Positions 4,529 through 16,673 of a DNA stretch of 23,508 nt are shown one piece after another. The stretch lies in the IMG/VR virus record IMGVR_UViG_2663763227_000016; one strand, 5' to 3'. The first letter of the stretch is position 1; every line of letters starts with the position of its first letter. The stretch comes from a virus (taxonomy: Duplodnaviria > Heunggongvirae > Uroviricota > Caudoviricetes). The notes under the pieces are model-generated. The model ran no database searches and was not told the DNA's origin. It saw nothing but the letters and a program-made list of their open reading frames with translations. The position numbers were made by a program, and so were the translations under genes.

Positions 4529-4586
4529 TTTAAAAAGGGTGGCAGAGCAGTCACGGAGTAGAACTGATGCCACCAAAGACTACACA
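4529..4586 (-). ncRNA. dicF: DicF small regulatory RNA (ftsZ-targeting), processed from the operon transcript
   Basis: The minus strand reads ...GTAGTCTTTGGTGGCATCAGTTCTACTCCGTGACTGCTCTGCCACCCTTTTTAAAG, nearly identical to my recollection of K-12 DicF. It has the long-range stem GGTGGCA/TGCCACC followed by a U-run. Ends are approximate (+/-5 nt). Confidence 0.8.
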
Positions 4587-4911
4587 TGGATATTGTGGCG
4601 GGGCTGTCACTTAAGCGTATGGTCAGCCTGACAACCCGGTGTCCTCAAGGGGAAGGAATAACCCCGCCATACTTACCGCCGCGCCATTTCGCGGATTGCC
4701 ACAACCGGAAGCGCACGGTCGAATTAAATTTAACGACAAAGTACAGAGAGACGAGCTTCTCCGTGTGCTTTCGCGTTATGCTCTGACTTTTCAGAGAAAT
4801 ATCCTTTCAGTAAACTGTCAGTGCCGGATGTTCACCCGTGTCCGGCGCACGCACTCCACTTCACCCGTGGAGAACTCCTTAATTACCAACCTTAGCTTCG
4901 TTGGTTAGCTA

Positions 4912-10159: not shown

Positions 10160-10846
10160 ATGACCCCAATAAAAATATTTATGACTATTGCTGATTTCAA
10201 ACGGCCTAAATTGGAGCTCCCAAACGGGGCAAACAAACTACTACTGCACTCTTGCTGTGCTCCATGTTCCGGTGAAGTGATGGAGGCGCTTCAGGCCTCG
10301 AGAATCGACTACACCATCTTTTTCTACAACCCGAACATTCATCCTCAGAAAGAGTATTTAATTCGTAAGGATGAAAATATTCGCTTTGCTGAACAACACG
10401 GCGTGCCGTTTATCGATGCTGATTACGACACCGACAACTGGTTTGAACGTGCCAAAGGAATGGAATGGGAGCCTGAGAGGGGGATCCGTTGTACCATGTG
10501 TTTTGACATGCGTTTTGAGCGGACAGCGTTGTACGCTGCTGAAAATGGTTTCAGTGTGATCAGCAGTTCACTGGGCATTTCACGCTGGAAAAATATGCAG
10601 CAGGTTAACGAGTGTGGGCGGCGAGCTGTTGCGCATTATCCGGGTATGGTGTACTGGGATTATAACTGGCGCAAGCAGGGCGGCTCGTCCCGTATGATTG
10701 AAATCAGCAAGCGCGAAAAATTCTATCAGCAGGAATATTGTGGCTGTGTGTATTCTCTGCGCGATACCAATCTACACCGCAAATCTCAGGGACGCCCTCT
10801 TATCAAAATTGGCCAACTCCACTACGGAAAAGAAGAGAAGGAGTGA
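10160..10846 (+). CDS. QueH-like epoxyqueuosine reductase (DUF208 family) moron
   Basis: 228-aa ORF with the N-terminal [11 protein letters not shown] motif I recognise from DUF208/QueH, plus further Cys residues (CTMCFD, CGCVY). There is no clear ribosome-binding site at either candidate start (10160 or 10181). Confidence 0.6.
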
Positions 10847-11083
10847 TTTTATGGATCACCTTTCTGATTGATTTCATATTGGCGAGGTGACGTGAGTTAA
10901 GTAGAATGGCTGCGGGTGCTTGAGGCTATCTGTCTCAGGCATGAACACTGAAAGGCAGATAGAGAAAAGCCCCAGTTAACATTTCGCGTCCTGCAAGACG
11001 CTTAACATTAATCTGAGGCCCAATCTATGTCTCACAAATGTAGGTTAGCCTCTTACGTGCCGAAAGGCAAGGGGAAGCAGGCT

Positions 11084-11239
11084 ATGAAGCAGCAAAAGGC
11101 GATGTTAATCGCCCTGATCGTCATCTGTTTAACCGTCATAGTGACGGCACTGGTAACGAGGAAAGACCTCTGCGAGGTACGACTCCGAACCGGCCAGACG
11201 GAGGTCGCTGTCTTCACAGCTTACGAACCTGAGGAGTAA
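11084..11239 (+). CDS. hokD: Hok/Gef-family type I toxin (HokD/RelF-like)
   Basis: 51-aa ORF MKQQKAMLIALIVICLTVIVTALVTRKDLCEVRLRTGQTEVAVFTAYEPEE, near-identical to Gef/RelF as I recall them. GGGGAAG ribosome-binding site; an in-frame upstream extension (from 11027) resembles a mok-type leader. Confidence 0.85.
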   Translation: MKQQKAMLIALIVICLTVIVTALVTRKDLCEVRLRTGQTEVAVFTAYEPEE

Positions 11240-11308
11240 GAGACCTGGCGGGGGAGAAATCCCTCGCCACCTCTGATGTGTCAGGCATCCTCAACGCACC
11301 CGCACTTA

Positions 11309-11337
11309 ACCCGCTTCGGCGGGTTTTGTTTTTTTCT
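11309..11337 (+). terminator. Rho-independent terminator downstream of hok
   Basis: ACCCGC-TTCG-GCGGGT hairpin followed by TTTGTTTTTTT. Confidence 0.7.
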
Positions 11338-11406
11338 GGCATTCTGGTTTACAATTCGCACGTCAGCCTGAACACCTGACACCTGCTGCGCCAGCAGAGA
11401 AAACAG

Positions 11407-11679
11407 ATGGCGCACAAAACCAAATTTCACAATTCTGATACCGACCTTGCCATCCGGCATGGGCGGCGTTCACACGCATTTAAAACCGACTGGTACCAAC
11501 ACCCACCATGTACTGAAGAACAGGCCGAATGGCTAATTCATAACTACCGCAGACGCGGATACGAGATTAAGAAAGCCCTCAGCCTCGATTATCGTCACTG
11601 GATAATCTCCGTCAGGCTTCCTTACTCTGAACGCCCACCGCGTCCGTCCCGCACATTCCAGCAACGCATCTGGAGGTAA
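11407..11679 (+). CDS. Hypothetical small protein (possibly rem-like by position)
   Basis: 90-aa ORF lying between the hok gene and the DUF968-like gene, as rem does in Qin. Weak ribosome-binding site; identity not recognised from sequence. Confidence 0.45.
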   Translation: MAHKTKFHNSDTDLAIRHGRRSHAFKTDWYQHPPCTEEQAEWLIHNYRRRGYEIKKALSLDYRHWIISVRLPYSERPPRPSRTFQQRIWR

Positions 11680-15449: not shown

Positions 15450-15525
15450 GGCCCTTTAGCTCAGTGGTGAGAGCGAGCGACTCATAATCGCCAGGTCGCT
15501 GGTTCAAATCCAGCAAGGGCCACCA
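15450..15525 (+). tRNA. tRNA with CAU anticodon (Ile2-lysidine type or Met; ileZ-like)
   Basis: Manual cloverleaf: acceptor GGCCCTT/AAGGGCC, D-arm GCTC-AGTGGTGA-GAGC, anticodon loop CTCATAA, T-arm GCTGG-TTCAAAT-CCAGC, encoded CCA. Confidence 0.85.
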
Positions 15526-15532
15526 TCACATA

Positions 15533-15609
15533 CCGCCATTAGCTCATCAGGAAAGAGCGCCAGCTTTCGAAGCTGGTTGCGCGGAGTTCGGGTCCCCGAA
15601 GGCGGTCCA
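15533..15609 (+). tRNA. Possible tRNA-Arg (anticodon UCG), degenerate or pseudo-tRNA
   Basis: Manual fold: D-arm GCTC-ATCAGGAAA-GAGC, perfect anticodon stem CCAGC/GCTGG with loop TTTCGAA, encoded CCA. It has mismatches in the acceptor and T stems, a non-canonical T-loop (TTCGGGT) and starts with C. Confidence 0.45.
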
Positions 15610-15622
15610 TTATCTGTATCCT

Positions 15623-15699
15623 GCGTTGTTAGCTCAGCCGGACAGAGCAATTGCCTTCTAAGCAATCGGTCACTGGTTCGAATCCAGTACAACGCGCCA
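15623..15699 (+). tRNA. tRNA-Arg (anticodon UCU, reads AGA)
   Basis: Canonical cloverleaf: acceptor GCGTTGT/ACAACGC, D-arm GCTC-AGCCGGACA-GAGC, anticodon stem ATTGC/GCAAT with loop CTTCTAA, T-arm ACTGG-TTCGAAT-CCAGT, encoded CCA. Confidence 0.9.
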
Positions 15700-15743: not shown

Positions 15744-15958
15744 CTCACAATTCAGGCGGTTGACTGTTGTCTGGTTTGCGGGGAGTTTGTTAAAAGAAAC
15801 TGGCATGGTGAATCCCCCTGTGCGGAGGGGCAATCAGCGAGTAGGTATATGGGATAATCGCGGATTCAGGTGCTGGTACTGAATTCACCGGGAGGCACCC
15901 GGCACCATGCAATGGCACATAGCGCCACTCTCCAGCCCCTCTCCGGAGGGGCTTTTCT
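15744..15958 (+). repeat. Structured non-coding module, copy A (TTGACT box, two hairpins, terminator-like GCCCCTC-TCCG-GAGGGGC-TTTT)
   Basis: Shares with copy B, at a 468-bp offset, the blocks CTCACAATTCAG, CATGGTGAATCCCCCTG.GCGGAGGGGC, CACCGGGAGGCACCCGGCACCATG and CCCCTCTCCGGAGGGGCTTT. Confidence 0.6.
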
Positions 15959-16147
15959 GTGCCGGATACATCACAGTTTCTGGAACCTTAGGTACTACAG
16001 TATCAGTCAGGGTGCTATATTTTCAGATGTGATGAAAGCCTGTCAGCAGGCAGGGCGTATCGGAAATGACCCAGTAGAGAAAACGTTGACTCAGATACCG
16101 GTGCTGAGTTACCGGGAAACCGGCATCACATGACCGCTATCCTTCCA

Positions 16148-16211: not shown

Positions 16212-16444
16212 CTCACAATTCAGTAAGTTGACAGTTGCCTGTCAGACTGGGCATTTGTTAAAAAAATTTCGCATGGTGAATCCCCCTGAGCGGAGGGGCG
16301 ACTGGTGACGGTATAATCTCTGATTATCAAAACGAGAATGACGCGGGTTTAGTGGCACCGGGCTGAACTCACCGGGAGGCACCCGGCACCATGTGCATGA
16401 TGATACAGATACGCGGCTTTAGCCCCTCTCCGGAGGGGCTTTCT
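16212..16444 (+). repeat. Structured non-coding module, copy B (TTGACA box, GGTATAAT, hairpins, terminator-like hairpin)
   Basis: Diverged tandem copy of module A. It contains TTGACA (16229-16234) and a consensus-like TATAAT (16309-16314). Confidence 0.6.
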
Positions 16445-16673
16445 TATGGACAAAAAAAGCCCGCGCTGGGAGACGCGGGCGGCAAGGAATAAACAATAAA
16501 ACGTGAAGTAATATTTCAGCTGGCGAATAATACCCCATAGTAATCACTCTGCGCAACTGCGCGGTCTTTTTCGAATTGCGGGCTGTAGTCTCCCTTCTGC
16601 CATTGTCCTGTAACTTCCGGACTTCAGCCTGCTCCTTATCTGACTCACAACATTATCCCGCCCGGGAGGATTC

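Follow-up and report, generated by a model that had tools for sequence, protein, structure and literature searches.

The window analyzed here, a stretch of 23,508 nt (23.5 kb), derives from a lambdoid prophage of E. coli, as judged by the gene content around hok. Its genes begin with integrase, excisionase, exonuclease, dicB together with DicF, repressor-region and replication genes, and QueH, and continue with hok, DUF968, RusA, Q, a DNA methylase, three tRNAs, an esterase, and holin/lysozyme/Rz. The segment from ca. 10879 to 11335 very probably constitutes a type I toxin-antitoxin cassette (hok/mok/sok, HokD/HokW lineage) that is complete and autonomous. By gene order, the cassette is a small accessory insert in the nin region, between the QueH gene and the DUF968-RusA-Q genes. 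Elements of this kind are known, and public genomes already carry annotated copies identical to it. A 551-bp stretch that includes hok has 100% identical matches in many E. coli chromosomes, where the coding sequence is annotated as hokD, and at least 80% of this query is present in 3345 of 5426 complete genomes. In phage records, the similarity typically runs from ~10894 to ~11311-11333 and is flanked by differing genes, so that these ~440 bp behave as one self-contained cassette.

A tblastn search across all 23.5 kb of the window recovered no homologue of RelB or RelE (best E > 1), in agreement with the original prediction that relBE does not flank the toxin gene. The relBEF arrangement of K-12, where hok directly follows relB-relE and lacks a leader or sok of its own, is thus not the one seen here, and the window carries a full leader at the place of the K-12 relE junction.

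In the early-left region of the prophage, the DicF antisense sRNA gene (4537-4588, minus strand; Rfam, 61 bits) adjoins dicB. The STnc100 sRNA is present in two tandem copies (15774-15964 and 16242-16451; Rfam, 136 and 165 bits), which lie downstream of Q, the DNA methylase, and the three tRNA genes (15450-15696) and are followed by an esterase gene of the SASA/NanS-like type. This site is the place of the stx genes in Stx-converting phages, and no stx is present there in this prophage. A 90-aa ORF downstream of hok (11407-11679, plus strand) has no Pfam match.

The hok toxin and the mok frame

The coding part of the locus and the gene that precedes it are as follows.

10160-10846, QueH gene, just before hok
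11015-11018, plus strand, mok SD (GAGG), 8 nt upstream of the mok ATG
11027-11239, plus strand, mok reading frame from the ORF list, 70 codons, in frame with hok
11069-11074, plus strand, hok SD (AAGGGG)
11084-11239, plus strand, hok toxin CDS of the HokD/RelF type, 51 aa plus stop

The 70-codon ORF reported in the original prediction (11027-11239) exists, but it represents the mok frame; the start codon of hok is an internal ATG, at 11084, and the last 51 codons of the ORF encode the Hok/Gef toxin. The assignment of the toxin to the Hok/Gef family, close to RelF, was correct. The whole Pfam HOK_GEF profile (PF01848) is matched with 80.6 bits (cut-off, 22), and the peptide is 98% identical to K-12 HokD/RelF (50/51 residues, the difference being I34L), 90% identical to HokW of 933W, and 43% identical to R1 Hok. 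It keeps 21 of the 21 columns that are invariant in a five-sequence Hok alignment, and has the size (~50 aa), the N-terminal transmembrane helix, and the TRK-LCE-R-G-EVA-F core of small Hok/Gef membrane toxins. The NCBIfam Hok subfamily models remained below their cut-offs on the window toxin (49 against 73), and the toxin was therefore named from the Pfam match and from RefSeq, where the identical protein is HokD (WP_000813262.1).

The mok ATG is separated from the hok ATG by 57 nt, and hence the two are in the same frame; mokW of 933W is likewise annotated in frame. Among 48 family loci with a locatable mok, the frame is shared with hok in 25, shifted to +1 in 18, which constitute a 58-nt class, and replaced by a short upstream ORF in 5. 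R1 mok presumably lies in the +1 frame at 58 nt, in agreement with that class. The upstream mok frame has its own SD, and by analogy its translation would be coupled to that of hok. As a side observation, the hok Tyr47 codon (11222-11225) reads TAC followed by G, a motif kept in 159 of the 168 related cassettes described below; editing at this codon would provide the second cysteine of the toxin.

The hok mRNA and its predicted folds

The elements of the hok transcript were located as follows.

10879-10907, plus strand, hok mRNA promoter: -35 TTGGCG (10879-10884), 17-nt spacer, -10 TAGAAT (10902-10907)
10914-11335, plus strand, predicted full-length hok mRNA, ~422 nt, with the 5' end set by homology and the 3' end by the terminator T-run
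10914-10925, plus strand, tac (translational activator element), GGGUGCUUGAGG
10916-10942, plus strand, metastable 5' hairpin of the nascent transcript, whose 3' arm holds the 5' copy of TCAGGCAT
10935-10942, plus strand, 5' copy of the octamer TCAGGCAT, in the 3' arm of the metastable hairpin
10967-10975, plus strand, ucb (upstream complementary box, anti-SD of mok), AAGCCCCAG
11015-11052, plus strand, Sok-target hairpin: mok SD GAGG (11015-11018) paired with dcb GCCUC (11048-11052), loop CUCACAA (11031-11037)
11246-11269, plus strand, GC-rich 3' hairpin right after the stop codon, predicted 10-bp stem
11281-11288, plus strand, 3' copy of the octamer TCAGGCAT, immediately 5' of fbi
11289-11301, plus strand, fbi (fold-back inhibitory element), CCUCAACGCACCC
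11308-11335, plus strand, intrinsic terminator of the hok mRNA: 7-bp stem (11308-11325) with 5 G-C pairs, followed by TTGTTTTTTT

A generic scan of 10700-11500 returned a sole sigma-70-like site, TTGGCG-17-TAGAAT (9 of 12 consensus matches), and a sole terminator-like site, at 11308-11325 with a T-run to 11335. The promoter is predicted to be weak; its -10 hexamer and the bases that follow align with 933W, Rac, and R1-like loci, and the 5' end of the R1 hok mRNA is GGCGCUU (numbering in PMC9841398). The terminator is conserved in K-12 hokD and in Rac hok. Rfam family RF01794 matches 10914-11089 on the plus strand with 120.5 bits against a gathering score of 59, across the tac stem and the mok-SD/dcb target hairpin. 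A leader and a terminator belonging to the toxin gene itself, both anticipated by the original prediction, are thus present. Although RF01794 is labeled "sok antitoxin", we rejected the match as evidence for an antisense RNA: the consensus of the family is hok-sense and ends at the hok AUG, and the match is therefore evidence for the conserved hok leader. The label is a trap for automated annotation, since the matched strand is that of the toxin mRNA and not that of the antitoxin.

By analogy with R1, where the final stem-loop guards the truncated mRNA against 3' exonucleases (PMC9841398), the GC-rich hairpin at 11246-11269 probably protects the 3' end of the processed transcript. The terminator faces the same way as the replication, QueH, DUF968, RusA, and Q genes, which places it on the early-right path to Q, and it may double as a nin-region terminator. 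Antiterminated read-through past 11308-11335 would meet the Sok promoter head-on. In RefSeq, a minus-strand gene for a hypothetical protein of 59 aa (11281-11460) overlaps fbi and the terminator of hok; this is probably a spurious call.

In the predicted fold of 10914-11335, tac and fbi form 12 bp with one bulged C (P = 1.00), and the full-length hok mRNA, with both ends paired, has an MFE of -173.7 kcal/mol. The original prediction had suspected a fold-back of this type on account of an octamer shared by the leader and the 3' end. The octamer is shared, with exactly two occurrences of TCAGGCAT in the window, and the fold-back is present in the predicted structure, but the pairing partners are GGGUGCUUGAGG and CCUCAACGCACCC. 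The two octamer copies are a direct repeat of the same sense and therefore do not pair with each other, and the repeat alone is not significant, because at least one 8-mer in common with the leader also turns up in 17% of shuffled versions of the 3' segment; TCAGGCAT was rejected as the tac/fbi pairing on both counts. The 5' copy, being the 3' arm of the metastable hairpin, is in the predicted fold the anti-tac sequence, while the 3' copy provides only an imperfect extension of the fold-back helix, against 10926-10932.

Conservation of the long-range pairing was assessed in a sample of 80 loci encoding Hok relatives, taken from species-representative genomes. A pattern search recovered the tac motif in 39 of 57 distinct family loci plus the window. 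Broad duplex and local-alignment searches of 5' against 3' windows were uninformative, as GC-rich terminators score high even after shuffling. A search anchored on the tac 12-mer, in which the best complement was sought within 140 nt after the stop codon of the 39 loci with a recognizable tac, gave a clean result where the broad-window searches had not. The best complement was located 45-70 nt after the stop in all but one of the 39 loci, and in 32/39 it was matched or exceeded by no more than 3 of 100 shuffles. Covariation of tac and fbi is seen across these 39 loci, which come from several genera, and the window conforms to it. The variants are GGGUGC/GCACCC (hokC- and hokD-type), GGCGC/GCGCC (R1-type), and GGGCGC/GCGCCC (a Pantoea locus). 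The long-range 5'/3' pairing of tac with fbi is thus indicated by both the fold and the compensatory variants.

Each of the alternative pairings of the family (the metastable hairpin, tac/ucb, ucb/mok-SD, and mok-SD/dcb) was also seen in predicted folds. The first 33 nt of the transcript form an 11-bp hairpin, 10916-10926 with 10932-10942, that accounts for 90% of the ensemble (-16.9 kcal/mol, z = -4.6). When the 3' end was removed in silico (to 11288 or 11276), tac moved to ucb at 10967-10973, and in the same truncated folds the mok SD paired with dcb at 11048-11052. Both the tac/ucb stem and the metastable hairpin are predicted with z of ~-4.5. The ucb/mok-SD pairing is dominant only when the consensus A is placed at position 11073, and is a 35% minority with the G of the window. 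Within the loop of the target hairpin, CUCA is a YUNR motif (U-turn). The dcb overlaps the Sok promoter in the window, as it does in R1 (PMC9841398). A transient tac hairpin, matched by the 5' hairpin of the window, has been described for R1, and the state that combines tac/ucb with mok-SD/dcb is the open, Sok-binding conformation of the published model (PMC9841398).

The Sok gene and the integrity of the cassette

Two features were assigned to the strand opposite hok.

11035 to 10965, minus strand, Sok antisense RNA gene, ~71 nt, with ends transferred from the sokW annotation of 933W
11070 to 11042, minus strand, Sok promoter: -35 TTGCCT (11070-11065), 17-nt spacer, -10 TAACCT (11047-11042)

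In 933W, sokW is annotated at coordinates homologous to window positions 11035 down to 10965. The stretch 11037-11072, which includes the Sok promoter, is base-for-base identical to 933W/Sp5. This promoter has been validated in Sp5 by Takada et al., who used primer YO-421 to convert AGGTTA to CGGCTC in the -10 hexamer of sokW and thereby obtained a promoter-less mutant (PMC8621323). Loss of the sokW promoter unmasked HokW toxicity, which was partially relieved by sokW in trans, and sokW RNA was detected on Northern blots (PMC8621323). The Sok promoter architecture occurs at the same offset from the hok ATG in most family loci, and is missing precisely in the relE-hok fusions. Our promoter call is based on this positional conservation and on the exact identity to the validated sokW promoter.

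The predicted Sok RNA consists of a free 5' tail of ~9 nt and a long hairpin followed by a U-rich tail, CUUUUCUC (-29.6 kcal/mol, z = -4.9). Its 5' tail is complementary to the CUCACAA loop of the target hairpin (11031-11037). The putative gene therefore has the layout of a cis-encoded Sok, with a promoter on the opposite strand, a location in the mok-hok interval, and coverage of the mok translation initiation region.

The original prediction had seen neither a promoter nor a terminator for Sok, and had concluded that the locus may be antitoxin-less or inactive. Both elements are in fact found on the minus strand, and the predicted Sok gene runs antisense to the mok start with all elements apparently intact. 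A generic promoter and terminator scan of the minus strand of 10700-11500 also found nothing; it misses the Sok promoter because the -10 hexamer TAACCT matches the consensus at only 3/6 positions. Sok genes escape generic scans and reading by eye, as the -10 element is weak and the promoter lies inside the leader of the toxin itself. The alignment to characterized hok/sok loci that had been proposed as a check located mok, tac, fbi, and the Sok promoter.

An orphan or decayed hok without a functional Sok, silent like some chromosomal hok genes, would be consistent with the empty minus-strand scan and with the fact that K-12 hokD, the closest named gene, lacks sok, mok, and tac. We consider this very improbable. 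No part of Sok is missing (promoter, transcribed region, terminator hairpin), the mok SD and ATG, tac, ucb, dcb, and fbi are intact, and no frameshifts or stops were found in the window cassette. Decay was further evaluated in 168 related IMG/VR cassettes, chosen through an exact 38-mer at the hok start and hence subject to some ascertainment bias; the elements were retained as follows.

51-aa Hok intact, 158/168 related IMG/VR cassettes
tac intact, 160/168 related IMG/VR cassettes
fbi intact, 152/168 related IMG/VR cassettes
exact Sok promoter, 163/168 related IMG/VR cassettes

Each element is thus kept in 152-163 of the 168 cassettes, and most of the shortfalls are probably cassettes cut by contig ends. 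Frameshifts or stops in homologues and loss of the fold-back elements, which the original prediction had named as signs of decay, are not what these counts reveal. The exact toxin sequence of the window is found in 31 of the 168 contigs. On present sequence evidence, the locus is neither orphaned nor decayed, and every regulatory element of the hok/sok family is present.

Known relatives, regulation, and role

Cassettes of this type are already annotated in 933W and Sp5 (VT2-Sakai), and hokW-sokW has been studied experimentally. The hokW-mokW-sokW locus of these phages is ~93% identical to the window at the DNA level over 10894-11311. Each carried by a lambdoid prophage, the loci have one and the same Sok promoter sequence, matching tac, fbi, ucb, and dcb elements, an in-frame mok spaced 57 nt from hok, and Hok peptides with 90% identity. 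The two loci differ at the toxin C-terminus (HokD-like FTAYEPEE in the window, FVDYESEK in HokW) and by several substitutions in the Sok/target region, which affect 10/71 Sok positions. Unlike 933W, which diverges after fbi, the window has its own rho-independent terminator, and its hok SD carries G11073. The two cassettes also sit at different places in their phage genomes: the nin region in the window, but near the right end of the 933W record.

The closest relative of the toxin, K-12 hokD (relF) of the Qin cryptic prophage, shares 50/51 residues with it; the resemblance extends to a nearly identical 3' UTR, fbi, and terminator and to a related set of downstream neighbors (rem, ydfU/DUF968). 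Homology between K-12 hokD and the window ends ~16 nt upstream of the hok ATG, where K-12 has relB-relE in place of the promoter, tac, ucb, mok start, Sok gene, and Sok promoter, all of which the window possesses. From this comparison K-12 hokD reads as the truncated form, and the window as the complete hokD-type locus. The useful outcome is a correction: what had been taken for an orphan toxin is a complete hokD-type locus, mapped element by element to the base.

The K-12-type arrangement of relB-relE-hok, with no tac, mok, or sok, was also observed in one unclassified Enterobacteriaceae genome and one Kluyvera genome, with RelBE 95-100% identical and Hok only 70-80% identical.

relB-relE-hok arrangement: sample loci L009, L014, L029, and L034; junction sequence in L077 and L085; compare L002:1775-1850

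These sequences suggest a maintained operon arrangement or repeated recombination and not a one-off decay.

R1 hok/sok (parB) has the same element order and the same predicted folding pathway as the window, with a metastable hairpin, a closed tac/fbi form, and an open tac/ucb form. The mok SD/dcb target hairpin and a Sok promoter placed inside the mok leader, where it overlaps dcb, are also common to both (PMC9841398). The R1 locus is plasmid-borne, with proven post-segregational killing; its Hok is 43% identical, its tac/fbi pair is GGCGC/GCGCC as against GGGUGC/GCACCC in the window, and the Sok-complementary hairpin of the window has a 16-nt insertion relative to R1. Loci of the hokC (gef)/mokC/sokC type share with the window the tac sequence GGGUGCUUGAGG, the GCACCC half of fbi, and an in-frame mok, with Hok ~80% identical. 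They have a shorter leader (tac at -150, compared to -170 in the window) and other Sok promoter hexamers, and are chromosomal, not prophage-borne.

Put together, the sequence and the predicted folds point to the following scheme. A weak promoter would produce a hok mRNA of ~420 nt, whose nascent 5' end would first fold into a local hairpin; in the complete transcript, the 5' tac would pair with the 3' fbi, and upon loss of the 3' end tac would switch to ucb. The convergent promoter, identical to the validated sokW promoter, would drive a ~71-nt Sok RNA antisense to the mok start region. By extension from R1 and Sp5, the full-length mRNA should be stable, untranslatable, and not bound by Sok. 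Slow exonucleolytic trimming from the 3' end would open it, after which unstable Sok would bind the target hairpin and RNase III would destroy the duplex. Should the Sok supply fall, Mok and Hok would be translated, and the 51-aa membrane peptide would depolarize the inner membrane. For R1, slow 3' processing, the instability of Sok, cleavage by RNase III, and toxicity once Sok is lost have all been shown (PMC9841398), and the same chain has been shown in part for hokW-sokW (PMC8621323).

The likely role, by analogy with the near-identical hokW-sokW, is to speed up lysis and phage release after SOS induction; prophage stabilization is another possible role. Treatment with mitomycin C lowers sokW and raises HokW in a way that depends on RecA, and deletion of hokW-sokW halves Sp5 phage release (PMC8621323). 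The role seen in Sp5/933W may not be transferable to the window, because the cassette sits elsewhere in those phage genomes. A main role in defense, by abortive infection or superinfection exclusion triggered when an infecting phage stops host transcription and Sok decays, appears rather improbable. A phage-defense role of R1 hok/sok is cited in PMC8621323 and in the Hok survey of bioRxiv 10.1101/2025.08.07.668861, and the latter reports a ca. four-fold enrichment of hok genes in prophages, but the same survey saw no enrichment of hok near defense systems.

An intact anatomy is no guarantee of a phenotype, given that the chromosomal hokA, hokB, and hokC reportedly showed neither post-segregational killing nor activation by rifampicin (cited in bioRxiv 10.1101/2025.08.07.668861). 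The cassette of the window could likewise be intact and transcribed but phenotypically silent, a selfish prophage hitch-hiker that Sok represses permanently and that neither kills nor helps lysis. G11073, which weakens the hok SD and is predicted to lead to its sequestration, would fit such a state. We regard it as conceivable but unlikely: near-identical hokW-sokW is toxic once sokW is silenced and contributes to Sp5 release (PMC8621323), the RNA elements are strongly conserved over hundreds of prophage copies, and the G allele is recurrent and not a one-off lesion, being present in 48 IMG/VR contigs. A role in lysis and phage release remains our preferred reading.

The G at 11073, just upstream of the Sok -35 hexamer, changes the hok SD from AAGGAG to AAGGGG and results in Mok E16G; the A allele is found in at least 120 IMG/VR contigs, as against the 48 with G. 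With A11073, the full-length mRNA is predicted to adopt the textbook closed form, in which ucb pairs with the mok SD (P = 0.98-0.99). With G11073, ucb is on the hok SD in 62% of the full-length ensemble, with the mok-SD/dcb hairpin already formed, and the ucb/mok-SD pairing drops to 0.35. The energy difference, 0.2 kcal/mol, is within the error of the model, and the predicted effect is a lead and not a finding; regulation may differ in detail. If the effect is real, ucb would sequester the SD of hok and not that of mok, the Sok-target hairpin would be exposed in the full-length mRNA from the outset, and the main product would be a 70-aa in-frame fusion of Mok and Hok. Read-through at induction, if it occurs, could override control by fbi and the terminator and also occlude the convergent Sok promoter. 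That G11073 is a regulatory variant and that, jointly with it, antiterminated read-through ties toxin release to prophage induction is a long shot.
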